This document shows positions 14,637 to 45,694 of a stretch of 64,000 bases of DNA, piece after piece. A program made the position numbers and the translations under genes. The notes under the pieces were generated by a model. It saw only the letters and a program-made list of their open reading frames with translations. It ran no database searches and was not told where the DNA came from. Source of the DNA: a virus. Taxonomy: Duplodnaviria > Caudoviricetes. The stretch spans positions 3,215 to 67,214 of IMG/VR virus record IMGVR_UViG_3300002220_000674; one strand, given 5' to 3'. Within the stretch, counting starts at the first letter, position 1. Each line of letters begins with the position of its first letter.

Positions 14637-15026
14637 TTACGATGTTCTTGAAGTAGGTGTTGTTAACTCCCTAATATTTAATTCCAAAGATACTTCAAAT
14701 CGATATGCCTGATCTTCTAATGCTGCTTCAATATATTCGCCATTTAAATCAGTAACGTACACAATATAAGCTTTAGCCGCTGTTTGATCCCATACAACAG
14801 GCTCTTGTGATAAATACATAGTTCTTAATTGTGCATATTGCGTAACAGTCATCCATTTCCACCAAAGAGTGACAACTGTTCCTTCAAGAAAAGCAGGCCA
14901 TTGAAACAGAGCACTTCCAGAATAGGTATTAACAATTGCAGCTGTTTTTTTAGAATCAGGAAGAGTCACTTTTAATGGATTCAATGGAAAAATATATCCA
15001 CCTAATCCTTGCATAAATATTGCCAT
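14637..15026 (-). CDS. distal tail (Dit-like) protein
   Basis: 129 aa directly after the TMP. Confidence 0.55.
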   Translation of the reverse strand: MAIFMQGLGGYIFPLNPLKVTLPDSKKTAAIVNTYSGSALFQWPAFLEGTVVTLWWKWMTVTQYAQLRTMYLSQEPVVWDQTAAKAYIVYVTDLNGEYIEAALEDQAYRFEVSLELNIRELTTPTSRTS

Positions 15027-28772: not shown

Positions 28773-29270
28773 TTATTCTACCTTTTTCTTACGTCCTCTG
28801 CGTTTCTTTGAACTTTCATCATCTGTATCTTTTTTCTTTCGTGTCCTGCGTTTCCGAACCGGCTCATCTTCTTCTTCCTGTTCAGGTTCTTCTACTTCTT
28901 CTTCCTCTTCAGGTTCTTCTACTTCCTGTTCAGGTTCAGGTTCTTCTTCAATATCATTAGGATCAGCTTGCATCACACCATCCCGCCAATATTCTTTTTC
29001 AATTTCTTCTTTTACTTCTTCAACAGGTTCCACATAACGATCAACTTCAATCATTATTTCTTCCTGTTTTGGTTCAGGTGTTTCCATTGTGAAATCATCT
29101 ATTTCCACAACTTCATGTTTTATTTTATCTTCAAGCACCTGAACCAATGGTGTTCCTATTTTTCTCTGAATAAAACCAGGAAACGGTTTATATTCATCGG
29201 TAAAAATTGCTCCTTTGGGAAGTACTCTTCCTTTTGCAAGTTTAAGATTTACCATCAACATTACTTTCAT
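28773..29270 (-). CDS. hypothetical protein with acidic tract and basic tail
   Basis: ATG 29270 overlaps the HNH stop (ATGA); AAGGAG RBS lies inside the HNH gene. Confidence 0.65.
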   Translation of the reverse strand: MKVMLMVNLKLAKGRVLPKGAIFTDEYKPFPGFIQRKIGTPLVQVLEDKIKHEVVEIDDFTMETPEPKQEEIMIEVDRYVEPVEEVKEEIEKEYWRDGVMQADPNDIEEEPEPEQEVEEPEEEEEVEEPEQEEEDEPVRKRRTRKKKDTDDESSKKRRGRKKKVE

Positions 29271-30217
29271 AAATTCTCCTTGGAGTTGCATTGTATATTA
29301 TTTAATAAGGCGAACTCACCAAATTGTTTACGTGCTTCTTTGTTGTATACCTGTGCTGCTCTTATCTCAGATTTATAAGATCCTATGTATTTACCTGCTA
29401 ACTGAACAATCCAACGATTTCTGTTTTTAGTAACTCCTTTGTATCCTTCTTTTTTACGTTTAGCACTATTCATAGAATTTTCTGAAGGAGTACAAAATCG
29501 AAGATTACTTTTCCGATTATCTAAAGTATCTCCATTGATATGATCAACATGTTGTGTTTTTGTACGATCACCTGTAGGACTAATTCCCATAACCAATTGA
29601 TGAAGAGCAACTCTTGGTTTAATTGTATCACTATACACCAAATGTCGAACAATTCCATTTTTTCGTTTATGAGAAATTTTGTACCATTTGTAATCTTTAA
29701 TTAACAAATAATCATCAGCATCAACAATGGCTTTTAAACCATTAAAGTTACCATATATATCTGCTAAATAAATAAAACAATTTACATCTTCCATTACAAA
29801 CTTATTAGGATCTTTTTGACTGCGACCTGTACTGGTAATTTTTCCATACAAAGACCATTGTCGATAATGCCGTTGACAAACTTCTTTTGGTTTCCCATTT
29901 AAATCAATTAAACAAATAGAAGGTTTTGAGCATTTCTGTATTTCACAAACCCCTTTAGGAAGAACAGATACTTTTTTTACTGTATCAGGAGTACCATAAC
30001 GATACACCCTTTTATAATGCATCGTACAATAACCAAGTGCTTCTACATTTTTAAAACATCCAGAAATTTTACAATCTACATGTGTGTTTCTTTCCCTGAC
30101 TAAAATCTTTTCAGGATCACCATGTCTACGAAAACGTCCGTAATGTTTAATGCAAAAACCTTTAGTTCCTGCTATGGTTTTACAACCTTCCACTTTACAT
30201 ACCTTCTCTTGTTTCAT
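29267..30217 (-). CDS. free-standing HNH homing endonuclease with three N-terminal Cys/His repeats and a C-terminal AP2 domain
   Basis: CxxxGC..C..HY.R repeats; VDHINGDTLDNRKSNLR; GYKGV..W..A..YN..A..FGEFA.LN. Confidence 0.9.
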   Translation of the reverse strand: MKQEKVCKVEGCKTIAGTKGFCIKHYGRFRRHGDPEKILVRERNTHVDCKISGCFKNVEALGYCTMHYKRVYRYGTPDTVKKVSVLPKGVCEIQKCSKPSICLIDLNGKPKEVCQRHYRQWSLYGKITSTGRSQKDPNKFVMEDVNCFIYLADIYGNFNGLKAIVDADDYLLIKDYKWYKISHKRKNGIVRHLVYSDTIKPRVALHQLVMGISPTGDRTKTQHVDHINGDTLDNRKSNLRFCTPSENSMNSAKRKKEGYKGVTKNRNRWIVQLAGKYIGSYKSEIRAAQVYNKEARKQFGEFALLNNIQCNSKENL

Positions 30218-30290: not shown

Positions 30291-31556
30291 TTAAGATTCG
30301 GATATTGCTGTGTCGGACGAAACTGTCAATACGACCGATGTGTCCGGTGCATACAATACAGGTAGTCCTTTATTCTGAATCCTGAGCCAAATACCATCAG
30401 GGTCCCATTCCAGTTTGGTATCAGCATACATACCCCATACACGTTCAACCATAAACGGAGCTTTCATAAACTCAGCAATTTTCTGTCCATTGCCATCAGT
30501 GGTATTGAACATGAAGAAAGTATGATCATCAATAAATTTTTTCCGCATGATCACTTTATCCCGATTTGCCCTGAGATTTGTAGATGGATTGGGATCTGCA
30601 TCATTTATTTTAGTTACAGTAATTGTTCCGTTTACTTTATCCACAGAAGCAATCTTGTAATCGTACCAAGTATTGTGCTGATTCATGACAACACAACGGG
30701 CTTTTCCACCAACTTCAAAATCGGATACATCATCCAAAGTCAAAGTCAGTCCTGCACCACCACTGATAGAAGTAATCCATCCCTGTACTTCATACAGTTC
30801 ATCATAAACCATAATGTTACCCACACCAATCAAAGCACCAATAACACCAGCAGGATTTTTAAACAGATCACCATCTCCAAAAGCACTCTTAGTCAAAAGA
30901 GCTTGCATACTCGTATCAAGCATAAGAGTTTTCAAAACAGTAGAATTACACATGGCATATTCAACACCAACTCCTGCATCATCAGACAAAAGAGTTTTGG
31001 CATCAAAAATATCTTCAATAGTATTTCTTGCTGAACCACCATCCCATCTACGGGTATCATCCAAAGTAATAAAATGACTTTCAGGAATACCATAACTTAC
31101 TGAAATCTTGGTCCCACCCTGCATCAAATAAGTCATCGTACCTTTAGTCAGCATCTGTGCCATCATCCACTCTTTTCTACGATCACATCTGAATCGAATT
31201 TTCTGTGCGCCTTTGGCAAGTTGTCTGGCAGCCGTTTGATAAGTAGCATAAGAACCAGGTTCTCTGAGATTGTTCAGGAACACTTCATCAAAAAACATTT
31301 TCTCTTTCCAAAATGCTGCCTTTGCATTTGCATGACTGATACCATCAATTCCCACAGAAGGTGCAACAGAACCGGGGGCAACAAAAGGAGTCATCCCACC
31401 AGAACTATATTCAATTTCCCATTCAATAGAATCTGAAGGATAATCAGCTTCTGGAAACAAATTACTGAAAAACATATTTGGGGCTTTATCAAACTTACTG
31501 ATCAGCTTATTCAGTGTCGTAAGATGTAAAGCCGGAATTCCTTGTGAACCTTTCAT
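30291..31556 (-). CDS. major capsid protein (lambda gpE-like) with an insertion
   Basis: MTPFVAP, R.E.M..Q.L..G and capsid-E-like C-terminus; GGAGG RBS. Confidence 0.9.
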   Translation of the reverse strand: MKGSQGIPALHLTTLNKLISKFDKAPNMFFSNLFPEADYPSDSIEWEIEYSSGGMTPFVAPGSVAPSVGIDGISHANAKAAFWKEKMFFDEVFLNNLREPGSYATYQTAARQLAKGAQKIRFRCDRRKEWMMAQMLTKGTMTYLMQGGTKISVSYGIPESHFITLDDTRRWDGGSARNTIEDIFDAKTLLSDDAGVGVEYAMCNSTVLKTLMLDTSMQALLTKSAFGDGDLFKNPAGVIGALIGVGNIMVYDELYEVQGWITSISGGAGLTLTLDDVSDFEVGGKARCVVMNQHNTWYDYKIASVDKVNGTITVTKINDADPNPSTNLRANRDKVIMRKKFIDDHTFFMFNTTDGNGQKIAEFMKAPFMVERVWGMYADTKLEWDPDGIWLRIQNKGLPVLYAPDTSVVLTVSSDTAISES

Positions 31557-31570
31557 TTAGATATCCTCCA

Positions 31571-32200
31571 TTATTTCAGAATAAAAAATTGTCCGTCAAC
31601 AATACCAAGTGCAGCAATCGCCGTATTGTCTAGATTAATCATAGAGTTTTTGTAAAGAACAGCATTGGATAAAACAACTGAAGTATTTGCACCCACTGCA
31701 TCCTCACCAAAACCAGTATCAACATCCTGATCCAAAATGTACTTGGCAGTTGCTCCACCTTTGACAAAAAGAAACTCTCCTGCATTCAATGCAGAATATT
31801 CATCAACTGTGATGGTATCGTAATAATCTCCAAAAGTAATAGCTTCTACAGTAATATCTACAGTTTGCCCTACTTCACGAAGAATATCATCAACTGTCAG
31901 AATACCACCATATCCTTTAGGAATTTGAATCTCACCATCATTTACTGCCAAAATGGGAATACATCCAAGAGCAGAATCAGCCCCTGCAACTACAGTTGCC
32001 GGAACATACGGAATACACATACTATCTGCATCAACTGCAAGAACAGTACCTGCCTTTAACTGTCCAAAACCTTTTTTACAGGTCTTATCAATAATCAATG
32101 CTTGTTCTCGCCGTGAATGAAACAGTCGTTTAATCCCCGGACCTTCAGGATATCTGTTCATTTGTGGGGTGCTTCCCCCAAAACTACCTAAAAAAGTCAT
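31571..32200 (-). CDS. head decoration protein
   Basis: G.LKAGTVLA..PY motif; located between the protease and capsid genes. Confidence 0.7.
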   Translation of the reverse strand: MTFLGSFGGSTPQMNRYPEGPGIKRLFHSRREQALIIDKTCKKGFGQLKAGTVLAVDADSMCIPYVPATVVAGADSALGCIPILAVNDGEIQIPKGYGGILTVDDILREVGQTVDITVEAITFGDYYDTITVDEYSALNAGEFLFVKGGATAKYILDQDVDTGFGEDAVGANTSVVLSNAVLYKNSMINLDNTAIAALGIVDGQFFILK

Positions 32201-32222: not shown

Positions 32223-33356
32223 TTATTTTACAAAGTTAAAAATTTTATCTGCTTCTGTTTCAGCATCTTCATCAGTGAAAGCACTCTTTGCAGGTTCTCT
32301 TTTATACGAACCAGTCCCTTTAATCTTTACTTCATCAGTGACAAGTCCTTTCCAATCTGCAAACTCAGCAACCAATGCTTCTTTAAACTTGTCAACATCC
32401 AGAACATCTTCTGAAACAAAATTAGTATAAGGAACAAGTCGCTGAATCTTTACTTTAAACTCTTCAGGAAGTTCAGAAACTTCAAACTCCGTTTCAAAAA
32501 TTCTTTCTGCTTCAAATTTTAATTCTTTTTTTCTTGCTGCACACAATTCAAGTTCCAGTTTTTCTAGACGTGCCTGCTGTTGATCCGTCATTTTGTTAGA
32601 ATTTTCTTTCAATTCATTAATCTGTTTGACAAGTTCTGTTTTTTCTACAGTAAATTTATCTTCCAAATCTCTTGTAATTTTTTCCTGAATACCTTTCTGG
32701 ATCTCAGCAAAAGCATCAGGCTCCTCCATTTTAAATTTTTCAATATCAAACATTTTAATCTCTCCTTTATCCTCTTTGTTTTTTTCAACTGTTTCCACAA
32801 AAAAAGTAATCTCTGCTTCATCCTTAAACGCTTTAGCTGATGTATTTGAATCTGCTCCAAACACACATACAGAACTTTCCTTTAACTCCCATTCTCTCCA
32901 TACATGACCGGGACCTTTCAATTTAAAACCATTTACTTCTGTAGATGCATCTTCTGTTACTTCCTCAATTCTAGTAGGAACTCCACGAATAGAACATTGA
33001 TATGGAAATCCTTCAGCAGATAATTTTTGAAATTCTTCTGATTCGGGAGTTGTCACAAAAGATGCATCAACTATTTCCAGTTTATTATCTTTAACACTGT
33101 ACTTGTGTGCAATTCCAATCTTACGGGCAAGGCTGTGTTCTTCTAAAATTGGTGTAGAACTTTTTGGAATCTTCATACCTTTCAAATCAAATGCAACATT
33201 TCCCCAATACCAATGATTTTTAATAATGCCACCCGAATATGAAACCATAGTCAGTTTTTTCTTTTCCCCTTCAACTGCAAATACATTTACAGTTGCATCA
33301 GGATCTATGAAATGCAGTGCATCTCCTTTAACTTTTTTGGTTTGCTGTACCTTCAT
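32223..33356 (-). CDS. prohead protease-scaffold fusion
   Basis: PILEEH..IG, YQCSI and ESSVCVFGADSNT motifs; C-terminal coiled coil. Start moved to ATG 33356 behind AAGGAG. Confidence 0.8.
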   Translation of the reverse strand: MKVQQTKKVKGDALHFIDPDATVNVFAVEGEKKKLTMVSYSGGIIKNHWYWGNVAFDLKGMKIPKSSTPILEEHSLARKIGIAHKYSVKDNKLEIVDASFVTTPESEEFQKLSAEGFPYQCSIRGVPTRIEEVTEDASTEVNGFKLKGPGHVWREWELKESSVCVFGADSNTSAKAFKDEAEITFFVETVEKNKEDKGEIKMFDIEKFKMEEPDAFAEIQKGIQEKITRDLEDKFTVEKTELVKQINELKENSNKMTDQQQARLEKLELELCAARKKELKFEAERIFETEFEVSELPEEFKVKIQRLVPYTNFVSEDVLDVDKFKEALVAEFADWKGLVTDEVKIKGTGSYKREPAKSAFTDEDAETEADKIFNFVK

Positions 33357-35463
33357 ATTTAATAAACTCCTTATAGGATCTAATATCATCTCCGATTAAC
33401 TTTTTTAAATATGTGCAGTCTGTATCATAAGTATAGAATTTTAGTCCACTTTTTTGTGCCTGTGTCAGTCCACAACGACCGGGCATATTTTTAATTCCGA
33501 TAGCAATTGGTTGTTCTGGATCATAGATAAATTTCTTAATTGGTTTTTTACCAAAGTTAACACGGGCAGTACCTATACGTCTTTCAATAAAAGGTGGAAA
33601 CGGTTTAAAAAAAGTCATTCCTTTTTTTAATGGACCCATTGGCGATTCAAATGGTTGAGTGACAACTACACATTTTCTATCTAAAACAGTACCTGTCTGT
33701 GTCCAGATTTGAGAATCAAGTAATCCTTTTTCTGCAAGTCCCGGTATTTGATAAACAGACTGACAAAGATCTTTCATAAAAGGAATAACATTTCGATTAA
33801 AAACTGTTTGATAAAGTGCAGGTTGTTTGGATTTATGCCGATAATTAAAACCAGGAAACTTTAAACTATAAAACACTAAAGAACCTACACCTACCATATC
33901 ATATGATTGCAACCATTTCATCATTGTTTCTATATAAGTAGAATGATACCAGTCATCATCTTCAAAGATACAAATATTTGGTTGATTAATAACTTCAAGT
34001 CCTTCTAAAAAATTTAAACAAAGAGTGTGTTTAGGATCAGTAGATTTTGATTCTCTTCTTATATAAGTACTTTCAGCAGGTATTTCTTTTAAAGGAACTT
34101 TACCATCATCTATAATGATCCATTGTTTAACTGGAACAGTTTGTCGTTGCAACCATTTTTTACAAAGTTTAAACGCTTCAGGACGATCTCCGGTACATGT
34201 TATTGCTGTTACCGGATATGATTGTGGGATTTCAATTTTTGGTGGAGTGACAACAACTTCTTCTTTATAATTAGGTTCTGGTTTTCCATAACTGACAGCT
34301 AACGCTGTACTATATATTTTATCCTGCCAAAAAATTTTATAGTTTTGTTTAAACACATCTGTAATAAAATTATAATCTGCACCCTGATTGATACAAAATT
34401 TTGATGCATGTTTTTGATATACTTCTTTAGTGACAACAAAATTTGCCATATCAATATGAGCAAACTGAGGTTTATTTTTCCAAACAACATCAGTGGGATA
34501 TACTTTATTTTTACGAGTCCCTTTAATTATAATCACATCAGGAGCATGTTCTTTTACAATTGCTTTTATATCAGCAACAAATGAATCATTTATCAAAACA
34601 TTATCATCATCTAAAATAAAAACGTAATCACTTGTTATTGCTGGACTATTTACATATAAAGATTTATTTGCAAAAGCAACTCCTTTTCCTATCTTATCCA
34701 GTAATACCATATGATAAAAATCTCGATCAGTTTGACGCAAAAGACTCTCCATATTTTGTAAATAAAGATTAGGTCTTTTAGGATGTTTTCTTGTGACAAC
34801 AGTTAGAAATTGTTTAACTGTTTTCCATCTAGAAGTATCTGTAAATTCTACTGGTGCAATTTTTCGTGTTCCTCTGCCATAGTGTTTGATATAATCAAAA
34901 ATAGGAAACTCTTTTAAAATCTTTTCGGATAGTCTTTGATTATATATCTCAACCATTGTTTCAATACAAGGGGAACCATGATGAACAAAAGGGGGATACT
35001 TAAAATACTGCGCACAATTTAATAACATAAATACAGGATGAAGATAAGAAATTTTAATAGAATGTTTATTTGATCTATGAAAGTATCCATCTTTACAAAG
35101 TTTTTCAAAATACCCAACACCATAAGTTTCTTCTTCCATTGCTGCTAACATCTTTCCAACAGCAGGTCTGTTTACTTTAATATCTGAATCAAACAAAAGA
35201 ACATATGGTGTTGTTACTTGTTGGATTCCAAAATGCATACCATCTCCATGTCCAATATTAAATCCTTTACAATATACTTTAGTATATGGATCTTTAAGTT
35301 CTGAAACATATTGGTAACAATCATTTTCTACATTAGATCCATCGACAATAATAATGGGCATCGTTGGATAAAACCTACGCATAGAAGTTAAAGCCGTGTG
35401 TGCAAACCCTTTTGTATTATATGTAACCATTACACCAGTAACATTCGTATCAATTTTTTTCAT
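33328..35463 (-). CDS. 711-aa protein with three tandem GT-A glycosyltransferase domains
   Basis: Three DxD-type motifs (LLFDSD, FILDDDN, IFEDDDWY), each in a GT2-like unit. Confidence 0.85.
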   Translation of the reverse strand: MKKIDTNVTGVMVTYNTKGFAHTALTSMRRFYPTMPIIIVDGSNVENDCYQYVSELKDPYTKVYCKGFNIGHGDGMHFGIQQVTTPYVLLFDSDIKVNRPAVGKMLAAMEEETYGVGYFEKLCKDGYFHRSNKHSIKISYLHPVFMLLNCAQYFKYPPFVHHGSPCIETMVEIYNQRLSEKILKEFPIFDYIKHYGRGTRKIAPVEFTDTSRWKTVKQFLTVVTRKHPKRPNLYLQNMESLLRQTDRDFYHMVLLDKIGKGVAFANKSLYVNSPAITSDYVFILDDDNVLINDSFVADIKAIVKEHAPDVIIIKGTRKNKVYPTDVVWKNKPQFAHIDMANFVVTKEVYQKHASKFCINQGADYNFITDVFKQNYKIFWQDKIYSTALAVSYGKPEPNYKEEVVVTPPKIEIPQSYPVTAITCTGDRPEAFKLCKKWLQRQTVPVKQWIIIDDGKVPLKEIPAESTYIRRESKSTDPKHTLCLNFLEGLEVINQPNICIFEDDDWYHSTYIETMMKWLQSYDMVGVGSLVFYSLKFPGFNYRHKSKQPALYQTVFNRNVIPFMKDLCQSVYQIPGLAEKGLLDSQIWTQTGTVLDRKCVVVTQPFESPMGPLKKGMTFFKPFPPFIERRIGTARVNFGKKPIKKFIYDPEQPIAIGIKNMPGRCGLTQAQKSGLKFYTYDTDCTYLKKLIGDDIRSYKEFIKYEGTANQKS

Positions 35464-35471
35464 ACATTACC

Positions 35472-35930
35472 CTATAAAGACTGGCTTAGTTTATTAATAG
35501 TTTCTGTCCGATGAAATCCCAATCGTAACCATACATTCCATAAATGTTCTTTGTCTGTATGAACTTCAAAACGAGTAACACCTTTGCTGATCATATGGCT
35601 CATACCCATATAAGCAAAAAATTTATAAAACCCATTGCTTCTGTATTCAGGATATGTAAAAGCTGCATGAAATGTACCAATGGTGTCTTTATAAGTAATG
35701 TACATCGTAGATATAATTTTTGCTTTATCAGTAATAAACATTATCCATGAACCTTTAATCACATTCCATTTTTTACCTCGCAACTGTTCCCATTCCTTTC
35801 TCAACTTAGGACTGACTTCTTCTTCATATAAAGCAAACATCTTATAAGATTCTTTAAGTTTACGAGTTTTTTCATCAAAACAATTTGGAAAGTCAAGTTC
35901 ATTTAGTTCTGCTGCAAAATAATTAGCCAC
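35472..35930 (-). CDS. GNAT-family acetyltransferase
   Basis: FTYPEYRSNG acetyl-CoA motif; W.RLGF C-terminus. Confidence 0.7.
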   Translation of the reverse strand: MANYFAAELNELDFPNCFDEKTRKLKESYKMFALYEEEVSPKLRKEWEQLRGKKWNVIKGSWIMFITDKAKIISTMYITYKDTIGTFHAAFTYPEYRSNGFYKFFAYMGMSHMISKGVTRFEVHTDKEHLWNVWLRLGFHRTETINKLSQSL

Positions 35931-36438
35931 CTATATTCTCCTTTATAATTCTGACTAGTCGTTTACGTTCATGGTTTGTAATAAAATCATGGAACACATA
36001 TGGACCAAGGCTTTGTTTCTTAGACCTTACACATGAATAAATCTGTAAAGCTGTTTCATATTGCTCTTCTGTAAAATCAGTATAGGGAAAAACAAAACAG
36101 ATCGGTTTTACACCAAATATTTTCTTAATCCATTTTCTACTGGCAACCATTTCATAAACTACTTCATCTAAAGGCATCTGTGAAAAATGTTTATGTGATA
36201 CTGTATGGCTTGCAATCTGCCATCCCTTGCTAAGTAAAAAACGAATCTCTTTTTTTGAAAGTACAGGAAGTACACGATTCCCATATCGTTTGGTATGTGT
36301 AATATTTTTTCCTACCATTGATGTGATTACACCGAGAACTTTTGGATAGGGATAATTTTTTACAATAGGATATGCATAAGTAAGAACGTCTTTATAACAG
36401 TCATCAAAAAAAAGTGTTTGATCAGGTAAAGTTTTCAT
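35923..36438 (-). CDS. NodB-type polysaccharide deacetylase
   Basis: FFDD, GWQIASHTVSH and FVFPY motifs. Start moved to ATG 36438. Confidence 0.85.
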   Translation of the reverse strand: MKTLPDQTLFFDDCYKDVLTYAYPIVKNYPYPKVLGVITSMVGKNITHTKRYGNRVLPVLSKKEIRFLLSKGWQIASHTVSHKHFSQMPLDEVVYEMVASRKWIKKIFGVKPICFVFPYTDFTEEQYETALQIYSCVRSKKQSLGPYVFHDFITNHERKRLVRIIKENIGG

Positions 36439-37114
36439 ACAACCCCATTTTAAATAATTGAGTGACAACTTCTTCTTTTCTTTTTGCAACACCATTTCTC
36501 TTATAAGTATCATGTTTATCAGGATGATGATCCAATCGTTTTTCTATGCACATTCCTTTTCTACTTAACTTTGCATAAACTGCATATGAAAACCAAAGAT
36601 CCTGACAGTTTGCTTTGTACTGATCAGGCCATGTTTCCACAATATCTGTATGGTCAAGGATATTTCGATCAATAACCATTCCTCCTGTACCACAATAATT
36701 TACAACTTGATTTGGACTTGCCATAGGAGTTCTCCAATAACCAATCTTTGGTTTTATTGCCCGACTCCACCAAGAACAGATATGCTGCTTTCCATATTGT
36801 TTATGACATTTATTCATATAAGAAATAAAATCTATATGAGGAAACTGGTCATCATCAAAAAAGATAACAGGATTTCCAACACTGATCTTTGCCATAAGAA
36901 ATCTTGCATACCCATAAAGATTTTGTTGTGAATGAACCACATGACAATCCACATTACTTTGTATTGTCATCTCATTTACTTTATCTTGTATTTCAATATT
37001 ATTATTCCAAATCCAGAAGGAAAAATTTTTATTGGTTTGTCTTTCTAAGCGGTCAAGTATCTCAGGAAGGTTTTGTTCTCGTTTCCATAAACACATAACA
37101 ACAGCAATAGGCAT
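36422..37114 (-). CDS. glycosyltransferase family 2-like
   Basis: VVMCLWKR..L..QT; IFFDDD. Confidence 0.85.
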   Translation of the reverse strand: MPIAVVMCLWKREQNLPEILDRLERQTNKNFSFWIWNNNIEIQDKVNEMTIQSNVDCHVVHSQQNLYGYARFLMAKISVGNPVIFFDDDQFPHIDFISYMNKCHKQYGKQHICSWWSRAIKPKIGYWRTPMASPNQVVNYCGTGGMVIDRNILDHTDIVETWPDQYKANCQDLWFSYAVYAKLSRKGMCIEKRLDHHPDKHDTYKRNGVAKRKEEVVTQLFKMGLYENFT

Positions 37115-37116
37115 GA

Positions 37117-37803
37117 TTAAATTTCTCTATACGAAGTAACTGTTATTGGAAGATCCAAATACATACATTGTTTCATTTTCTCTTTACAATTTTTTCTAAA
37201 TTCAGAATCAGGACCTGTCTTTGGATCAACTGTTAAAGCATCAGGATGTTTTCTTCTGATAAAGTATGCTTTCTTTTTTAAATTCTTAATAGGAATTCCA
37301 CAATGAATAAGTCTTTCTTTAAAATCACTGTCTGCTCCTACACGATACCCACGAAATCCATTCATGTCCAAAAAAGTTTTGTGTTGTATTCCAAACACAC
37401 CATTGGCAGTTATCTGTGATTTTTTTAAAGTAACTTTACTACCACATATTTGTTGATAGCAAAAACGTACAACAGGATAATGAGACAAGTTATGATAAAC
37501 TTCATAGACAAGTCCATCTAACATAATATCATCAGCATTAAATATAATAACCTTATCATAACCTGTTGAAAAAATAAGACTGTTTAATACAACATAAGGT
37601 CCTTGATTTTTTTCAAACCAGTAAAGTTTTAAATTATTATAGTTGTTTCGGATCTGTTCCAGTTTTTTAAGTGTGGAATGACAACCATCTATTCCCACTT
37701 TAATTTCAAAATCACCAAGACATTTTTGGTTGGCTACAGAATTTAAACATTCTTCAATAAACGGGGCGGCTTTATAAGCAGGGATAACAATGGATAAGGT
37801 CAT
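37117..37803 (-). CDS. glycosyltransferase family 2
   Basis: SIVIPAYK..IEECLNSV..Q; IDG; NADD; GADSDF. Confidence 0.9.
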   Translation of the reverse strand: MTLSIVIPAYKAAPFIEECLNSVANQKCLGDFEIKVGIDGCHSTLKKLEQIRNNYNNLKLYWFEKNQGPYVVLNSLIFSTGYDKVIIFNADDIMLDGLVYEVYHNLSHYPVVRFCYQQICGSKVTLKKSQITANGVFGIQHKTFLDMNGFRGYRVGADSDFKERLIHCGIPIKNLKKKAYFIRRKHPDALTVDPKTGPDSEFRKNCKEKMKQCMYLDLPITVTSYREI

Positions 37804-38318
37804 TATTTAAAACTCCATACATAAATGATTCGAGTACCTATTTGTTTTACTTTTACAGGTTTGATAAAACTAGTCCATTTAGCAATAGTTTCCTTAGTGA
37901 TATTATAATGACAATCATTAGAGGCACATTTCCATTTATAAGGAAAAGATAAAATAGCATTATGACTGATCCTCATCACTTCTTTGAATGCCTCAACCTG
38001 ATTGGTAAGATGTTCCCATACCTGTAAGGCAACAAATAAATCAAACTGTTTATCTTTTAAAGGAAAAGGAATTTCATTAAGATCATGACAGATACTATTT
38101 GTCTTTGGAACAAATTCAGGAATAATATCTATTACAAAAGAATTTGAATCTAATGAAATTCCCTGAGTTCCTGCTTCACATATATTTTTTGGACCAAATA
38201 CTTTAATCTCATTTAATACCCATTGCATATATGACCATCTATTTTCTAATGTTTTACTCCAATACTTCATTCCATTTGTTTGAACTAATCGTTCATATCT
38301 TTTCCTGTTCAAATACAT
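37803..38318 (-). CDS. class I SAM methyltransferase-like
   Basis: CEAGT; DLNEIPFP..FDLFVALQVWEHL. Confidence 0.75.
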   Translation of the reverse strand: MYLNRKRYERLVQTNGMKYWSKTLENRWSYMQWVLNEIKVFGPKNICEAGTQGISLDSNSFVIDIIPEFVPKTNSICHDLNEIPFPLKDKQFDLFVALQVWEHLTNQVEAFKEVMRISHNAILSFPYKWKCASNDCHYNITKETIAKWTSFIKPVKVKQIGTRIIYVWSFK

Positions 38319-38992
38319 TATTCAGATTCCTTTGATTTTTTCTTACTGTCAGATTCAAAAAATTTCTTTTCTTCAATTTTCTGCAAAGGATGTTTACCAT
38401 GAGAAGAAAATAAAATATGAATAATAACTACATCTTCAGTAACAGGATCTTTAATTGGTAAAGCAAATACACTAACAAAAAATTCCGTAAATAAATCAAA
38501 GACATCACTTCCATAAACACGAAAATGTCCATGTTTTGTTGAATCAGGAACTCCCCAATCAATAGTATGTATATATCGAACAGGAGAAGGAACCGTAATA
38601 ATAACTACTCCTTCTTTTTTAATTATCCGGGCAAGTTCTTTAACAGCTTTCCGATCTTCTTTAATATGTTCCAATACATGATTACAAATAATCATGTCAT
38701 AACTACAATCAGGTCTGTCTATATTACATAAATCTATACTGTTATTTCCACCAAAAACACTTCTTTCATAATCTTTAAACCATGTGGACACTACAGATTT
38801 ATCAGGAGCAAAGTGTAATGCATTCAATGTATTTAAAGGAACCTTAAATCTTATTTGATCAAAATAAAAACGAACTGCACGATGACGTTCTAAAGAATGA
38901 CAAGTACAACAGGAAGGAAATTTTTTTGAATGTGATAATCGAACACCGGGACCATAAGTAAATTTAGTCCCTTGGCATATATTACATATCAT
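38318..38992 (-). CDS. class I SAM methyltransferase with N-terminal zinc ribbon
   Basis: CxxC..CxxC; LHFAP; YDMIICNHVLEHI. Confidence 0.85.
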   Translation of the reverse strand: MICNICQGTKFTYGPGVRLSHSKKFPSCCTCHSLERHRAVRFYFDQIRFKVPLNTLNALHFAPDKSVVSTWFKDYERSVFGGNNSIDLCNIDRPDCSYDMIICNHVLEHIKEDRKAVKELARIIKKEGVVIITVPSPVRYIHTIDWGVPDSTKHGHFRVYGSDVFDLFTEFFVSVFALPIKDPVTEDVVIIHILFSSHGKHPLQKIEEKKFFESDSKKKSKESE

Positions 38993-39498
38993 TATTTCAT
39001 ACCTCCTACTCCTAAATTTATAACACCATGATCATACCCTCTTGGTTTAGTTAGTCTAAAAATATTTTTAAAGCCTGCTGCCCTTAAATTTTTATTTAAA
39101 CTATCATAGTCAAATATACATCGATGCCAATTCCACTTTTCACCATAGGTAAAAATCCGTCCATTAATCCATGTCATAAAATCATTATCTGAATTATATT
39201 TTCTCCATTCATCTCCACATCTTTTATTTAGATAACACTTAACAATATATTCAAAATCAGGGACCCATATCTCAATAACACCATCAGGTGATAAAATACG
39301 ATAAACCTCTTTTAATACTGCAACTGTTTTCCACCAACGAACATGTTCCAATACATGACTCATATAAACCAAATCAAAACTATTGTTTGGAAAAGGTAAC
39401 TTATCTTCTAAATTACCTATAATATCAGCATTTTCCATACCAAAAGTTTTCCAATCAATTCCAATTTTAGTTTTACCCGGTCCTATTTCAAGTTTCAT
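38992..39498 (-). CDS. class I SAM methyltransferase
   Basis: LEIGPG; LPFPNNSFDLVYMSHVLEH. Confidence 0.85.
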   Translation of the reverse strand: MKLEIGPGKTKIGIDWKTFGMENADIIGNLEDKLPFPNNSFDLVYMSHVLEHVRWWKTVAVLKEVYRILSPDGVIEIWVPDFEYIVKCYLNKRCGDEWRKYNSDNDFMTWINGRIFTYGEKWNWHRCIFDYDSLNKNLRAAGFKNIFRLTKPRGYDHGVINLGVGGMK

Positions 39499-41111
39499 TT
39501 TTTAATCTCTTTAACTTTTTTCTTAATAGTAATTTTAGGTTGTTCTTCTTCTTTTGGTTTCTTTTTAATACCTGACTTTGGAACTTCCCCTTCTTCAATT
39601 TCCTGTTGAGATTCAGCATCCACATCAGGTTCTAATTCAGGATAAAGAGCGTCTTCAGTTGCAAGTTGCAATCTTAGTTTCTTATAATTTTTAAAACCAA
39701 TCTTTTCAGCAAGTGTTGCATTAGGTATGCCAAGAGTCTTTGACAATCTACCATGTTTAACACCAAGAAGAGCTTTAACTTGTGATTCCAGATTATCAAT
39801 ACTTGAAGAAGGAAATGAAAACTCCATCAGTTTATGGGGTGCAATCTGTTTGTATTTCAATACAGGTTCTTTGTTTTTATCAAAGCCCACTGCTCGTTTT
39901 ACTTTAAAAGAAGTTGGAAAACTTGTAACTTGACTTCTTAAAAAGAAAATAGAATTCCAAAAATCGTATTTCAAAAATCTTTCAAAATAAGAAATCTCAT
40001 CTTTTAACCGATCAGCCAAAGGACCACGAGATGCTGATACAGAAGCATAGGTTCCTTTTGCTTCTCCGGTCACAATATCTGCTGGCTTGTTTAAACCAGC
40101 AACTACCATAGATAAGATATCTGTATCAGTATCCGAAATCTTGGTAAGGTTGGGATTGACTGCCTGCATCTCAAAACCCGGAGGAAGTACAAGGGAACTA
40201 CCGGGAGTCTTCTTTGCTGTGATCCCGGTCTGTGCTCGTTGCTCATCTGTTAATGATAACCATATACGAAACATTTTAGGATCAGTACATTTGAAAACCC
40301 AAACATATGCACCAGAAGATTTCTTATGATCGATTTCATATTTTTTAAGATTTTCATAATGGTTCAACCATTCAATAGTAGTACTGACATGAGAAATATT
40401 TCTTTTAGTCAGAAAACTTTTATCCCAACGAACTATGAAACGATAATATCCATTAAGTTTTTTAAACTTTCTATCTGTTGTCATTGATCCTTTGATAGCA
40501 TTTTTATCCACCTTGTCTTTGATCAAATCCCACAGTTCAGGATACCTTGCCAGAAAAATACTTGGGATCTGTCTTTTGCTGTTTGGAAGTCCAGAAGAAG
40601 TTGAAAAATCAAATAACAATGGCATTGAAGGTTTGTCAGGATGATAATGGATTTCAGAAACAGAACCCGGATCATTAAAATCCACTTCAACAAATCCATC
40701 AGCATGAAGGGTATGGGTAAGAAAAAGTTCTCCTTCAATCTCTGCCCTTGCTACATACTTAGGCATATAAGTATGCAGTTGGTTTCTTTCATCATCTAGA
40801 ATTTCATCAATCACATCCTGAATTTCATCAATATCAGAGTAATGTCCAAAACCATCCCCACATAATCTACCCATTGTATCTGTTACAGAAGTACGAATAT
40901 GTGGACTTTTATTAAACTTTTTCCAGCACTCTTCCTGTAAAGCTTTATAATCATTAGGCCAAGGTTCTTTTTTATCTACAATTGGAAATCCATCAGGATC
41001 ATGTTCAGCAATTCTTGAAGCAGATACCTGCCAAGGAACTGTAAACATTAACTGACTAAGAACCTCATCCGGCATATTATCAATAAATTCTGTAACTTCT
41101 TTCGTATCCAT
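39495..41111 (-). CDS. portal protein
   Basis: 538 aa between terminase and head genes; IEGELFL and YASV patterns. Confidence 0.8.
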   Translation of the reverse strand: MDTKEVTEFIDNMPDEVLSQLMFTVPWQVSASRIAEHDPDGFPIVDKKEPWPNDYKALQEECWKKFNKSPHIRTSVTDTMGRLCGDGFGHYSDIDEIQDVIDEILDDERNQLHTYMPKYVARAEIEGELFLTHTLHADGFVEVDFNDPGSVSEIHYHPDKPSMPLLFDFSTSSGLPNSKRQIPSIFLARYPELWDLIKDKVDKNAIKGSMTTDRKFKKLNGYYRFIVRWDKSFLTKRNISHVSTTIEWLNHYENLKKYEIDHKKSSGAYVWVFKCTDPKMFRIWLSLTDEQRAQTGITAKKTPGSSLVLPPGFEMQAVNPNLTKISDTDTDILSMVVAGLNKPADIVTGEAKGTYASVSASRGPLADRLKDEISYFERFLKYDFWNSIFFLRSQVTSFPTSFKVKRAVGFDKNKEPVLKYKQIAPHKLMEFSFPSSSIDNLESQVKALLGVKHGRLSKTLGIPNATLAEKIGFKNYKKLRLQLATEDALYPELEPDVDAESQQEIEEGEVPKSGIKKKPKEEEQPKITIKKKVKEIKK

Positions 41112-41116
41112 CTAAT

Positions 41117-41473
41117 TTAAAACCCCCATCTTGTTTTTTTAGCCCGCACATCTATGTGAACAAAAGTATCATATAAACCAATCCCGTATGATATGGGATA
41201 GACTTGATCCAGATAATCATAGACAGTAACCGGCCAGATATGTTCCACTGTAATATCCGCAGCTTTTCCAAATAAATGTTGTGAATGTTTTGATCCTTTT
41301 CTTTTAGTATTGTATTTAAGACATCGACACCCTGAATTGATGATTACTTTTCGATTAAATCTATCCCGTAATATTTGTAATATTTTCAAAAGTTCTGCAT
41401 CTACAACATCAAAACCACATTGATCAGGGCAAGAAAACTCCCGCCTGTTGAAATTTTTACTAATATCCCCCAT
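41117..41473 (-). CDS. Zn peptidase M15 family endolysin
   Basis: INSGCRC..N..GS..SQHLFGKAADI..GIGLY..FVHIDVR. Confidence 0.9.
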   Translation of the reverse strand: MGDISKNFNRREFSCPDQCGFDVVDAELLKILQILRDRFNRKVIINSGCRCLKYNTKRKGSKHSQHLFGKAADITVEHIWPVTVYDYLDQVYPISYGIGLYDTFVHIDVRAKKTRWGF

Positions 41474-41480
41474 TTATTTT

Positions 41481-42062
41481 TTACCTTTCAGCTTTAAGGT
41501 TACAAGTTGTCACTGGAATTTGATTTAAGATAGTAATCCCTTTAATCCAAGAGGTTACAAATTCATTTTTTAAATGATAAATATACATCCCTTGCATTAA
41601 TCTAATTTTCCATTTATTTTCAATTAACCTTTTTGCAAAAATACAGACTTCATTTTCAATTCCGTGTCCAGGATATCCACCAGAAGCTTCCCAAGCTATT
41701 TTTCTAATAAGCATAAATGCTCCACTACAGTATAAATCAGTTACTTTAGTGCATTCATAACCAAATCTTAAAAATAATCTTTTTGCTTCATAATAATGAT
41801 CTTCCATATTATTTGAATCCACTGCAATATCCATTCTTTTATCTAAAGCTACAGATCTGTTGGTCCAACAAGTGAATAAGCCTGTATCTGGATAAAGGTC
41901 AATTGCTTTTTGACACATATAATACCAGTGTGGATGGCATAAAAAAACATCATGATCTATTAATAAAACCCAATTTTGTTTTGTTTCCAACATAATTCGG
42001 TTAACTTCATGTCCCAAATTTCCTTTTGTCGTAAAGGGGATTCTTACATCGATCTTTTCCAT
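41481..42062 (-). CDS. GT2-like glycosyltransferase
   Basis: WVLLIDHDV; SGAFMLIRK.AWE..GG. Confidence 0.7.
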   Translation of the reverse strand: MEKIDVRIPFTTKGNLGHEVNRIMLETKQNWVLLIDHDVFLCHPHWYYMCQKAIDLYPDTGLFTCWTNRSVALDKRMDIAVDSNNMEDHYYEAKRLFLRFGYECTKVTDLYCSGAFMLIRKIAWEASGGYPGHGIENEVCIFAKRLIENKWKIRLMQGMYIYHLKNEFVTSWIKGITILNQIPVTTCNLKAER

Positions 42063-42124: not shown

Positions 42125-45082
42125 TTAGTATTTTCCTAATACGGATTTTTCCTGCATAAATAAAAATCCAGGATTGCTTGTATGTCTGACTCTGAAATCT
42201 TCTACTGTTAATGCCATTCCCCCATAAATAGCATGACCTATTGCATACATAACATCATCTTGGACCCCATTTCTTGATTTTTTCTCTGGTGATCCAAACC
42301 ATTTTCCTAATTCATCCTGTACAAAATATGTCATTTCTTCATATAGAATATCTTGTAACTTAGAACCGGGAATGTTTACTGAAGGTGTTTTAAAATTTCC
42401 TTTGGCTACTGCGGTGTAAAATTCTGAAAAAAAAGTTCGTTGTCTGTCATAAGTGGGATGAACTGCCTGATAAGCAATCTGTTGATCTTCACACCACTCA
42501 GCAAGGTCCCACATTCCCCACCGTTCTGAACATATAGCATCAAGATCATCAAATTCTTCATTGCATTTTAAAATGATATCTTTCATCTGCTTTAATGTAT
42601 TTGGTTCAATGACAAGCAGACCAATTAAAAAATACATATATTCTAATGCTTCAGGATCTTTATAATTAAAAGTTAAAGTTTTACTGCTGTCTTTACATCC
42701 TTTGGCAACCAGTGCAAATAAGGACCTTGCGCCATGTGCTGCCATAGGATCGCTTCTGTCAAATCCTCCAAGAATAACAAAATCTGTATTGTAATGAGCA
42801 CCAATTTTATTGAGATCATCCAAAGAACATATTCCATAAGTGGTATCTATCCCATAAAGAGATGATACAGGATGGAGTTGTTTTTTGATTTGAACAACTT
42901 TTTTATATTTATCCTGAAGAATATCTACGGATTGTTCTTGGTCATTATTTTTTTCATTTTCATTGATTGCATCAATCAGATCAGTTTTTTCTTTGACAAG
43001 TTCAAGAAGTTCTTTATGGGTTTGATTATGAGGAAGGTAGTAACAAGTTTCAACTTGTTCAGGGGTAAACATGGCAAGGGACCCTGAACTCCATGTATTG
43101 AGAAAGTATCTTGCAAATTCACCGGGGGGAAACTTCACACGGTAAGAATCCAACTGTTTCTGATTCATCTGTGGATGCCAATAATCAGATTCTATTCCTA
43201 ATCTTGAATATCGGTATGAAAAAAACAATGCATCATCTTTTTTCTCTTCAAAAATTTCATACAGATTATGAAGTACATGTCCTTTTGCAGATACAGTGGA
43301 GTCAATAACTCCCAAAGCATTTGGAATGTTTCTGATAGAACCATCCAATTGATAAAAAAACTTTGGGTTTTTCATGTCAAAGATTTCAGAAAAAGTATAA
43401 CCTGTAATGTTAGATACAATTCCAGAAAAAGATGAAATAGCTCTGAGAATGTTATATCTTGTTTCATCTTCTCCAGTATGTAAATGTCTTCTGATTTCTT
43501 TTTCCTGTATATTTTTCTTTCCACCTATCCTATATAAAAGAAATGGTGAGTTTAAAATAATATCTCTGATGATATCAAAGTGAACAAACTTGATCTGATC
43601 TTTACTATTTGCACCGAGCATGATTTGTTGTGCATTAAAACACATAAACTTCCATATCTGCACCAATACTGCCTTGAAAGAATTATGGGTTACTGTAAAA
43701 TCAGAACGTATATATCTATGATTACCATCCAAAGCAAATCCATAATAATTCTGTCTACCTACTGATCTGATTTCTTTAATACCTGTAACTAATACATCTT
43801 TCCAACCATCTCTTCTTGGTGTACATTTTCGTCTTGCAACATTCACTGGAATCGTTGAACAGTTTCCAGTAATACCCACACAATAATATTCACCAACAAA
43901 ATCTATAGATTTAATTCCTTTGATGCATTTTTTAATTTCAGCATGAAATCCAAGCGATCTGGCTATAAAAGCAACATCTTCTGCTAATCTTTTTCTTTTA
44001 AGAGTTAATTGAAAAGAATTTCTATTTCTGTACCCATCTCCATCAATAATTCCAGCAAGAATTTTTAATCGGACTTCTCGTGAATTTGCTTTGTATACTT
44101 GTGGAATATGTTTATTATTCAAAAGGTGCTCATGTCGCATAGTTCTAACTAAAGGATGTTCAATTTTATGATTATTGTGAATATTACAGGTAAAAGCTTT
44201 TGTACCTTTTTTTGGGATAATGGAAATAGACAATCCTGTTTTTTCAACATATTCCTGCAAATAATCAATAACTTCCTGATCCATAGTTGTTATAGTTGGT
44301 CTATGTGAATCACCATCAGCAAGCCATAGTCCAAGAAAATAAGGATCAATGGGAACTTCTTGTTCAGGCCAATCAATAGGAACACGATAAAGAAAATATT
44401 TTTCTTTAAACCACTTACTTTGTTTTTGAAAATCTTTTAAGGAAATATCAATGAATTTTTTTTCTTCAAAACCTGCAATCTGCTTTCCTCTTTTATAAAG
44501 ACTCTCCTCACTTCGTTTTAAAGAAAGAATATGATCTGCGGTAACAGTTAAAGGTTCTCCTCTTGTTGGAATCACTTCAAACATTTCTTCTCTGCCACTT
44601 GCAAGTGACAATACTTTACGTGGGGTGTTATCATCCCCCATCAATAAATCTCCAACTTTTACATCTTCAACTTTTTTGATGGTTCCATCTAACATAATGA
44701 TTTTACTACCTTTTCTTTCACACTTTCCTTCACCTCGTGGTTCACAGAAAACAAGAAGTTTATGTTTAAAAATTCCATCTTCCATTTGAAGAGCTTCTTT
44801 GAAAACTTCACATTGCAACTCCCAAAATCTTTTATATGAAGCTCCCGGTCGCCATTCTTCATCAGGTAATGAATGAATAGGAGTCCATACAGGAACAACA
44901 TCTCCTTTTCTGTATATGGGGATTCTGACAAAGTGTCTGCAAAAGTTTATGAAACCTACACCACCATCTCTGTATCTTGGATCATCCATATCAGGAAGTG
45001 CTGAAGTTTTTTTTACTTCCATTGTATTTTGAACTTCAGAAATTAATGAAATTGTCTTTGGTTTTTTCTTTGTAAGTTTCAT
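42125..45082 (-). CDS. terL: terminase large subunit with an intein in Walker A
   Basis: PRGEGK|S P-loop; Walker B-like FSEIF; C-terminal nuclease with QDD; upstream of the portal. Confidence 0.9.
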   Translation of the reverse strand: MKLTKKKPKTISLISEVQNTMEVKKTSALPDMDDPRYRDGGVGFINFCRHFVRIPIYRKGDVVPVWTPIHSLPDEEWRPGASYKRFWELQCEVFKEALQMEDGIFKHKLLVFCEPRGEGKCERKGSKIIMLDGTIKKVEDVKVGDLLMGDDNTPRKVLSLASGREEMFEVIPTRGEPLTVTADHILSLKRSEESLYKRGKQIAGFEEKKFIDISLKDFQKQSKWFKEKYFLYRVPIDWPEQEVPIDPYFLGLWLADGDSHRPTITTMDQEVIDYLQEYVEKTGLSISIIPKKGTKAFTCNIHNNHKIEHPLVRTMRHEHLLNNKHIPQVYKANSREVRLKILAGIIDGDGYRNRNSFQLTLKRKRLAEDVAFIARSLGFHAEIKKCIKGIKSIDFVGEYYCVGITGNCSTIPVNVARRKCTPRRDGWKDVLVTGIKEIRSVGRQNYYGFALDGNHRYIRSDFTVTHNSFKAVLVQIWKFMCFNAQQIMLGANSKDQIKFVHFDIIRDIILNSPFLLYRIGGKKNIQEKEIRRHLHTGEDETRYNILRAISSFSGIVSNITGYTFSEIFDMKNPKFFYQLDGSIRNIPNALGVIDSTVSAKGHVLHNLYEIFEEKKDDALFFSYRYSRLGIESDYWHPQMNQKQLDSYRVKFPPGEFARYFLNTWSSGSLAMFTPEQVETCYYLPHNQTHKELLELVKEKTDLIDAINENEKNNDQEQSVDILQDKYKKVVQIKKQLHPVSSLYGIDTTYGICSLDDLNKIGAHYNTDFVILGGFDRSDPMAAHGARSLFALVAKGCKDSSKTLTFNYKDPEALEYMYFLIGLLVIEPNTLKQMKDIILKCNEEFDDLDAICSERWGMWDLAEWCEDQQIAYQAVHPTYDRQRTFFSEFYTAVAKGNFKTPSVNIPGSKLQDILYEEMTYFVQDELGKWFGSPEKKSRNGVQDDVMYAIGHAIYGGMALTVEDFRVRHTSNPGFLFMQEKSVLGKY
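43682..44722 (-). mobile_element. intein (347 aa) with LAGLIDADG endonuclease in TerL
   Basis: Starts CERKGSK and ends VTHN followed by Ser+1; TADHIL; LGLWLADG; LAGIIDGDG. Confidence 0.93.
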
Positions 45083-45085
45083 TTC

Positions 45086-45589
45086 TTATCCCTCAATGAA
45101 TTGATATGCATGTTCTTTTGCATTGAAATCCATGATAGGACCTGCCCCTTTCAAAATCATGTTTCTGTCCACATCGGCAAATTTCCACATCTCAGCAATC
45201 TTTGATAATACTTCTCTGATTTCTCTGTATACCGGGTGGATTCTTGTAGTGACCTGACCATTGACAATGATAAACATTTCTCCATTTAATGAACACTCTA
45301 CCTTGTATAGTTGTAACAGTTGTCTGTACAAGGGAAGGATTGCAATAGCTGTGTGTGTAAAAGCAGTCTCACTTATACGTCCTTCATGTTCCAACCTCAT
45401 CAGAAATTTTACGATTCGTACAAAAAATGAAGCATCAAACCCACACAAACCATCTTTAATAAATCCACATCGTTCATAGAAAGGACAATCTTCTTTCTTG
45501 CATTTGTTTACATACTCTAAAAACAGTGCATCACTTCCCCTTTGGGTAGTGATAAATAAATTCTTTTCTGTTTTTTTTATTAAATCCAT
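45086..45589 (-). CDS. probable terminase small subunit
   Basis: Directly upstream of terL; GGAGG RBS before ATG 45589; Cys cluster. Call rests mainly on position. Confidence 0.5.
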   Translation of the reverse strand: MDLIKKTEKNLFITTQRGSDALFLEYVNKCKKEDCPFYERCGFIKDGLCGFDASFFVRIVKFLMRLEHEGRISETAFTHTAIAILPLYRQLLQLYKVECSLNGEMFIIVNGQVTTRIHPVYREIREVLSKIAEMWKFADVDRNMILKGAGPIMDFNAKEHAYQFIEG

Positions 45590-45694
45590 ACTATTTCCTC
45601 CAAATTTTTTAGTTCTTTTAATCTTTTTTTTAAAAAAAGTATAGTTTTTTGTTTCTACAGTATTTATAATATACAATAGAAAGGAGAACAAATT

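Follow-up and report, generated by a model that had tools for sequence, protein, structure and literature searches.

Between the portal gene and the prohead protease gene of a low-GC tailed phage lie eight genes for enzymes that build and tailor sugar chains, and a ninth such gene is found further upstream, between the gene for the large terminase subunit (terL) and a cell-wall peptidase gene. The phage is represented by a single 67,214-bp IMG/VR virus record (IMGVR_UViG_3300002220_000674), and the whole stretch of DNA analysed here (64,000 nucleotides, hereafter the window) spans 64 kb of that record. The enzymes are glycosyltransferases (GT), S-adenosylmethionine (SAM)-dependent methyltransferases, a polysaccharide deacetylase and an acyltransferase, and the subject of this work is the probable role of the gene set, i.e., glycosylation of the virus particle. 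The nine genes, in window coordinates, are the following.

33328-35463, minus strand: GT711, a glycosyltransferase of 711 amino acids (aa) with three GT-A modules; the gene end abuts the protease gene
35472-35930, minus strand: p152, a GNAT-fold acyltransferase of 152 aa
35923-36513, minus strand: NodB/CE4 polysaccharide de-N-acetylase (Polysacc_deac_1 5.2e-17, PgaB 8.3e-10)
36422-37114, minus strand: GT230, a GT2 glycosyltransferase with an FFDDD motif (Glycos_transf_2 1.8e-8)
37117-37803, minus strand: GT228, a GT2 glycosyltransferase with an NADD motif (Glycos_transf_2 3e-14)
37803-38318, minus strand: MT171, the third SAM methyltransferase (Methyltransf_11 1.9e-6)
38318-38992, minus strand: MT224, a SAM methyltransferase (Methyltransf_11 7.6e-9, Methyltransf_23 2.7e-8)
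38992-39498, minus strand: MT168, a compact class I SAM methyltransferase with an N-terminal EIGPG motif (Methyltransf_11 3.6e-12)
41481-42062, minus strand: GT193, located between the terL and M15 peptidase genes, a small glycosyltransferase of GT-A-like type (DHD motif)

The eight cassette open reading frames (ORFs) overlap or are separated by gaps of no more than 8 nt, and the stop codon of the portal gene overlaps the start of the MT168 gene. The original prediction, made from the sequence alone, had described eight tightly coupled genes between portal and protease and an extra GT near terL; the coordinates and families were borne out, and so was its count of six GT-A domains, which is supported by Pfam, PHROG, ESM Atlas and an AlphaFold2 (AF2) model, each of the six domains carrying a DxD-type motif. 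GT193, the ninth enzyme (193 aa), stands outside the main cassette; it matches the PHROG glycosyltransferase family phrog_14179 (2.9e-10), its match to Glyco_tranf_2_3 (0.006) lies below the cut-off, and no homologue was found in 80 related loci (numbered with the prefix L below). Homologues of MT168 are present in the cassettes of L060, L061, and L067, homologues of GT230 (30-33% identity in tblastn) open the cassettes of L043-45, L063, L100, and L101, and the N-terminal segment of MT224 is Cys-rich (CxxC...CxxC). Signal peptides and hydrophobic helices are absent from all nine enzymes (maximum KD19 1.37), and the cassette contains no sugar-nucleotide synthesis genes.

In GT711 three glycosyltransferase modules are joined in one polypeptide. 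Module A (aa 1-215, FDSD motif) matches Pfam GT2 at 1.2e-12; module B (aa 216-405, LDDD motif) has no Pfam match and was placed by ESM Atlas in viral GT2-like clusters (TM 0.79-0.91). Module C (aa 406-711) consists of a domain with an EDDD motif and a C-terminal subdomain of about 110 residues, for which no match was obtained. The Pfam match of module C itself is weak (0.0034), its homologues score 8e-14, and its AF2 model (pLDDT 89.7) has the GT-A fold. The DSD, DDD, and EDDD motifs are invariant across five full-length GT711 homologues, and the closest homologues are P0002 at 75% and P0003 at 52%. Nearly all of the clusters closest to modules B and C are viral, and giant-virus GTs are found among the nearest structural neighbours of module C. 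As a single query GT711 gave no match in IMG/VR or in metagenome contigs, an alignment query being needed for that purpose.

The NodB-type deacetylase, whose true start is probably the Met at 36438, contains the FFDD and HTVSH metal/catalytic motifs in alignment with PgaB, and the FDD and HT..H motifs are also aligned in the match to PDB entry 4u10 (9.7e-7). Judged from its residues, it is a predicted enzyme of carbohydrate esterase family 4 (CE4) with the Asp-His-His metal triad and the catalytic Asp motifs; the Arg of motif 3 is apparently replaced (VFPY). The protein has no signal peptide and a maximum hydropathy of 0.78, and is thus cytoplasmic. The 152-aa protein, p152, has no Pfam match of its own, and an exhaustive search among 1.84 billion proteins recovered only 14 representative clusters of homologues; no relatives were found in IMG/VR by alignment search. 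Its earlier assignment to the GNAT family nevertheless holds, since five homologues pass the Acetyltransf_1 cut-off and the AF2 model (pLDDT 95.5) has the GNAT fold, matching 88 PDB chains at E<=1e-3, of which those listed are GNAT-fold proteins and include glucosamine N-acetyltransferase (5kf1). Residues R97 and G100 are invariant in the GNAT loop motif (R/Q-x-x-G-x-G/A); the last position of the loop is Tyr, not Gly/Ala, and the acyl donor is therefore uncertain. In three homologue clusters (P0015, P0017, and P0022) a p152-type GNAT is fused to NodB, two in the order NodB-GNAT and one in the order GNAT-NodB. Because homologues fuse the two domains, the pairing of deacetylase and acyltransferase put forward in the original prediction gains backing, and the fusions suggest that p152 is functionally tied to NodB, probably in an N-acyl exchange on an amino sugar. 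This pair, and the exact set of methyltransferases, were seen only in the window.

The genes that flank the cassette are listed here in their order along the minus strand.

45086-45691, minus strand: possible small terminase gene
42125-45082, minus strand: terL with an intein (Hint, LAGLIDADG homing endonuclease), 985 aa in total, at the upstream end of the late head operon
41117-41473, minus strand: peptidase M15, an endolysin-like cell-wall peptidase (Peptidase_M15_3 5.9e-20)
39495-41111, minus strand: portal protein (weak Phage_portal_2 match of 1.3e-3, position after terL, relatives)
32223-33389, minus strand: prohead maturation protease (phrog_3244 head maturation protease 2.7e-23), which borders the cassette downstream
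31571-32200, minus strand: p209, a conserved head-module protein between protease and capsid
30291-31556, minus strand: major capsid protein of the lambda gpE type (Phage_cap_E 1.1e-29; phrog_29 2e-38)
29267-30217, minus strand: HNH endonuclease, directly after the capsid gene

A gapless run of minus-strand ORFs leads from the possible small terminase gene to the capsid gene, in the order terL, GT193, M15 peptidase, portal, the eight cassette genes, protease, p209, and capsid, with the HNH endonuclease gene following, and no terminator-like site was found on the minus strand between ~46.7 kb and 31.8 kb. The GC content is about 33% overall and 30-32% over the cassette (0.30-0.32 at 34000-40000, vs 0.34-0.38 in the flanking head genes), which is consistent with acquisition of the cassette from elsewhere. 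The whole cassette had no megablast match among 50,697 phage records, and tblastn of the capsid protein gave a sole match, Lj965, at 26% identity. The replication genes, an SNF2 helicase gene among them, are on the plus-strand arm, and no tRNA genes were found. The phage family is low-GC and uncultured, and is known from sludge, digester, sediment, and gut metagenomes.

Several neighbouring genes have features of their own. The terL product matches PHROG families of the large terminase subunit (1.9e-13 and others), and its intein matches Hom_end_hint (4.5e-18), Hom_end (6.7e-11), and LAGLIDADG_3 (6e-8); the terL matches in relatives form either two adjacent blocks or a single block, and presence of the intein seems to vary among relatives. 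The charged C-terminal half of the prohead protease is probably scaffold-like. For p209 no family match was obtained in domain and PHROG searches; it is conserved in 39 related loci, with or without a cassette, and its location would suit a decoration or scaffold protein; it is also a possible acceptor. A recent mobile insertion is suggested for the HNH gene by the closest relative, L102 (capsid protein 86% identical), which runs straight from the capsid gene to a p172 homologue with no HNH gene between them; in L075, L104, and L105 HNH homologues are located between terL and portal.

The position of GT193 between terL and portal, adjoining packaging genes, speaks for the possibility that the GTs hypermodify the phage DNA with sugars, in the manner of 5-hydroxymethylcytosine (5hmC) glycans, and so evade restriction. 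Phage GT-A enzymes are known to add mono- to trisaccharides to DNA, and their clusters may adjoin structural genes (bioRxiv 10.1101/2023.12.21.572611). Such DNA-hypermodification clusters also carry a source of 5hmC or 5-hydroxymethyluracil (5hmU), either a ThyS-like enzyme or a C5 methyltransferase together with 5mYOX (bioRxiv 10.1101/2023.12.21.572611). No thymidylate-synthase-like hydroxymethylase, C5 DNA methyltransferase, or TET/JBP dioxygenase was found in the 67-kb record, the TET search having been run without a positive control, and the same enzymes were not found in five complete relatives, including a cassette-bearing record of 91.8 kb. Furthermore, six GT domains, three methyltransferases of the small-molecule type, and the NodB/GNAT pair exceed the described mono- to trisaccharide pathways (bioRxiv 10.1101/2023.12.21.572611). 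The original prediction had given DNA modification as an alternative only, and that ranking stands; we regard it as improbable.

The portal protein has 123 relatives of about 50% identity on viral contigs, flanked by terL and protease genes, and 66 loci among such relatives were informative for the portal-protease junction. In most relatives the protease gene follows the portal gene after 50-900 bp; in 20 of the 66 loci (~30%) the junction holds an insert of 1.5-9.6 kb. Of the 53 proteins encoded by these inserts, 10 are GT2 enzymes, at least 8 are SAM methyltransferases, 6 are hexapeptide acyltransferases (two of the PglD-like kind), 5 are DegT-type sugar aminotransferases, and 3 are radical SAM enzymes, and there are also a rhamnosyl O-methyltransferase and an FkbM methyltransferase; two methyltransferases of the relatives' cassettes touch the NodS profile. 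The modules of GT711 recur in relatives as separate or differently fused genes, the order of the separate modules being B, A, C-short, C-full, and full module C immediately precedes the protease gene in at least 12 distinct contigs. The largest insert (9.6 kb, L060:11635-20842) is that of the complete 91.8-kb relative, and encodes two radical SAM enzymes (one of them B12-binding and 736 aa long), the GT core, and three SAM methyltransferases, a content that suggests C-methylated or otherwise unusual sugars. In L066 a GT2-CmcI fusion is found together with a methyltransferase. Linkage of the cassette to head genes in relatives, which the original prediction had set as a check, is therefore seen as sugar cassettes of varying content at one junction. 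The junction is an exchange site at which the GT core is conserved and the tailoring genes vary, and because its cassettes differ between relatives, diversifying selection probably acts on the glycan structure. A different kind of junction insert is present at L008:2047-4095 and L010:5433-7601, consisting mainly of a protein of 682-722 aa unlike the enzymes of the window. Among the tallied insert proteins one has a beta-helix/NosD domain and one an fn3 domain.

These enzyme families, i.e., GT2, NodB, and methyltransferases, are typical of bacterial surface-polysaccharide pathways, and NCBIfam near-matches to PgaB/IcaB, TuaG, EpsD, and PglI were obtained. The cassette might accordingly remodel, at the cytoplasmic membrane face, a precursor of a host envelope glycan (lipopolysaccharide, capsule, teichoic acid, or peptidoglycan intermediates), for instance with superinfection block or release as the outcome; many lipid-carrier GT2 enzymes are peripheral and have no membrane helices. 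The GtrABC/Oac seroconversion modules, which act on the host surface, contain a membrane-embedded flippase, bactoprenol GT, or acyltransferase and usually belong to temperate phages, whereas the cassette has no hydrophobic helix and encodes no membrane or export component: no flippase, polymerase, lipid-carrier-priming transferase, or GtrA/B/C-type component. The 67 kb of the record contain no recognisable integrase gene, and the phage has replication genes of its own and carries the cassette in its late head operon. The largely viral nearest clusters of modules B and C, and a junction that is conserved across relatives while its gene content changes, argue in the same direction. Host-surface modification, also named in the original prediction as an alternative only, is in our judgement unlikely.

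The statement in the original prediction that mycobacteriophage Corndog has a smaller insert at a similar position proved correct. In Corndog (AY129335) gp34 is the portal protein (1.7e-43), gp35 a TylF-type O-methyltransferase, gp36-38 are GTs, gp39 is an S78 protease, and gp41 is the capsid protein, so that gp35-38 lie between portal and protease. The passages of PMC11600133 that cite Freeman 2023 (Cell Host Microbe 31:1216) describe, for cluster O phages, three tandem GT genes downstream of an O-methyltransferase gene as modifying capsid and tail tube; those of PMC12363180 that cite the same work name Corndog gp38 as essential for capsid glycosylation, and those of PMC12619734 place mycobacteriophage glycans on the C-termini of capsid and tail-tube subunits. 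The two systems are alike in that GT and methyltransferase genes share the strand of the head genes and lie between portal and prohead protease, and in that the enzymes are soluble. In systems of the Corndog/Che8 type the glycans are O-linked to those C-termini; the extra Ser/Thr-rich C-terminal tail of the window capsid protein may be a counterpart. They differ in their head proteins (Phage_portal, S78, and an HK97-type capsid protein in Corndog, a lambda-type portal and a Phage_cap_E capsid protein in the window), in the number of enzymes (nine in the window vs four in Corndog), and in the methyltransferases, which are of a different subfamily. The fusion of three GTs in one chain, NodB, and GNAT are features of the window that are not seen in the Corndog cassette, and Corndog is an actinobacteriophage whereas the window belongs to a low-GC uncultured phage family. 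In the sources consulted, experimental demonstration of particle glycosylation in phages is confined to a few actinobacteriophages, of which Che8, Corndog, and Myrna are named. There is reportedly little evidence for particle glycosylation outside those actinobacteriophages.

Virus-encoded capsid glycosylation by multi-domain enzymes is also known in chlorovirus PBCV-1, in which A064R (Rha-T + Rha-T + methyltransferase) and A111/114R (three GT domains) are capsid-glycan enzymes (PMC9614988). Like GT711 as predicted here, these are soluble cytoplasmic multi-domain transferases encoded by the virus. The methylated glycan that they build is attached to the PBCV-1 major capsid protein (PMC9614988). 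The A111/114R polypeptide has three GTs in one chain, as GT711 does, and mutations in the PBCV-1 enzymes give rise to antigenic variants, a parallel with the variability of the cassette among the relatives of the window. The differences are considerable: PBCV-1 belongs to the Nucleocytoviricota and infects a eukaryotic host, its glycans are N-linked, its early glycan genes are scattered through the genome, and homology to the window enzymes is shown only at the level of the GT-A fold.

In Nod-factor tailoring (NodB/NodS/NodA) and in mycothiol synthesis (MshB/MshD), an N-acetylglucosamine residue is de-N-acetylated in the cytoplasm and the freed amine is then N-methylated or N-acylated. The window NodB resembles rhizobial NodB in having no signal peptide; its partner acyltransferase is a GNAT, not NodA. 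The likeness is one of logic and not of membership. That same logic of deacetylase, methyltransferase, and acyltransferase, together with the candidate status of any virion acceptor, would fit a soluble methylated oligosaccharide or glycoconjugate, or a modified cytoplasmic protein of the host, with no structural role in the particle. The absence of an exporter, the persistent placement in the head operon across relatives, which is hard to explain for a metabolite pathway, and the positional parallel with Corndog make such a product very improbable, the least probable of the explanations considered here.

A candidate acceptor was found at the C-terminus of the major capsid protein. In this family the protein canonically ends 12-13 residues after a conserved KGLPVL anchor; in all 7 loci with the GT core it ends 17-20 residues after the anchor, an extension of 5-8 residues, and canonical ends are found in 12 of 24 other loci, including the three closest cassette-less relatives. 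The window protein has 8-9 residues (SSDTAISES, ~30294-30320) beyond the canonical C-terminus; this protein and that of L102 (86% identical) end in SSDT(A/P)ISES, and the five others in D(L/M)(D/A)EY or EEDEY. The tail of the window protein has the highest Ser/Thr content (7/15) of the C-termini of structural proteins. The association between capsid tail and cassette is suggestive, and the Ser/Thr extension is the favoured candidate acceptor, held as a candidate only because the rule is not clean and the link comes from so few lineages. A clean rule by which tail extension and GT presence imply each other was considered and rejected, as it fails in both directions outside the closest clade. 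At L105:13054-14261 the capsid gene matches as two adjacent pieces in different frames, which may reflect a frameshift, an assembly error, or an insertion.

The glycan could instead be carried by another component of the virion (p209, tail tube, tail fibre, or a 129-aa protein), with the capsid extension being unrelated. The 129-aa protein is encoded at 14637-15026 (minus strand), just after the gene for a giant tail protein of 3159 aa; it ends in ...LTTPTSRTS, its C-terminus has 6/15 Ser/Thr residues, second richest among the structural proteins, and it is a possible second acceptor. The systems of Corndog and Che8 also modify the tail tube, as stated in passages of PMC12619734 and PMC11600133, and Ser/Thr is missing from the capsid extension in cassette-bearing relatives with a DLDEY-type tail. 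The cassette lies ~6-27 kb from the tail genes, embedded between portal and protease, and the capsid C-terminus is the sole structural feature found to track cassette presence; an acceptor exclusively outside the capsid protein is in our view unlikely, and yet the least unlikely of the alternatives.

We propose that the cassette encodes a cytoplasmic system for glycosylation of the virion that is expressed together with the head genes, a reading that we consider probable and for which the support concerning an acceptor on the virion is circumstantial. Several points weigh against it. One cassette lineage has an acidic ...DLDEY capsid tail free of Ser/Thr, and nine relatives that have no junction cassette (L002, L004, L005, L011, L017, L023, L025, L046, and L079) carry mucin-like Ser/Thr capsid tails of 31-61 residues (e.g., ...AGESATSTTTTSSSTTTTTTA). 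GT2 genes are located elsewhere, ~20-25 kb away, in three of five such Ser/Thr-tail records, one of them beside a radical-SAM gene; completeness is 43% and 52% for the two records with no GT2 gene. A GT2 enzyme is still encoded elsewhere in two complete relatives whose capsid ends are canonical, and the capsid tail is linked to the cassette through only about two independent lineages. The blastp comparison of window proteins with Corndog gp35-38 gave no similarity (best E = 0.083), and because the head-gene families differ as well, the shared arrangement is best taken as convergent or analogous, and as positional only. Distant homologues of module C are found near tape-measure, primase, DNA methyltransferase, and sugar-nucleotide genes; the notion that they always stand beside head genes was rejected, the contexts in other phage groups being mixed. 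The record is of linear topology (IMG/VR class) with a CheckV completeness estimate of 46%, complete relatives with terminal repeats measure 80-93 kb, and the record is thus a fragment from which genes bearing on the question may be missing. Finally, the phage is uncultured, and contigs with portal relatives in metagenome-assembled genomes (MAGs) are binned to four phyla (Bacteriovoracaceae, Desantisbacteria, Ignavibacteriaceae, and Paludibacteraceae bins), giving no host; these are probably phage contigs that were binned along.

In the virion glycosylation system that we propose, the cassette would be co-transcribed with the head genes and its enzymes would act in the cytoplasm during prohead assembly. 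The soluble GTs would build a short oligosaccharide on a virion protein, presumably from nucleotide sugars of the host, because the cassette has no genes for their synthesis. The likeliest acceptor would be Ser/Thr residues in the C-terminal extension of the major capsid protein, and further virion proteins may be modified too. NodB would remove the N-acetyl group from an N-acetylhexosamine residue, and the freed amine could be re-acylated by the GNAT, probably with another acyl group, or N-methylated by a methyltransferase, the remaining methyltransferases O-methylating the sugars. Module C of GT711, with its extra C-terminal subdomain and its location before the protease gene, is a candidate for the acceptor-recognising step. 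The resulting glycan may alter the surface chemistry of the particle, i.e., provide shielding, stability, or adhesion.

We also put forward, tentatively and as a possibility that the present evidence leaves doubtful, a broader reading for this widespread family of 80-93 kb phages, in which capsid-glycan cassettes are swapped at the portal-protease junction much as O-antigen or flagellin-glycosylation islands are. Strains would thereby have serotype-like coats of their own, with capsid tails, short or mucin-like, as acceptors, and in this phage the coat would include an amino sugar that undergoes N-acetyl exchange by the NodB-GNAT pair, a step not known from any virus glycan. The kind of system is already known; what would be new is its occurrence in an unrelated phage lineage, the richer tailoring, and the NodB-GNAT coupling, which is not among the enzymes of the described virus glycans compared here (mycobacteriophage and chlorovirus). 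The candidate acceptor in the capsid tail, a three-in-one GT with separable modules, and a rare GNAT whose NodB partner is identified by fusions offer handles for further work. Sugar coats of phages matter for the stability of the particles, for their adsorption to non-host material, for recognition by antibodies in therapy, and for how GT genes in viromes, so-called auxiliary metabolic genes, are to be read. If the proposal is true, a widespread low-GC phage family unrelated to the known cases would have independently placed genes for sugar-chain synthesis at the corresponding position in the head operon, the genes found there would turn over between close relatives, and a richer chemistry would be possible, with six transferase domains, multiple methylations, and N-acyl exchange.

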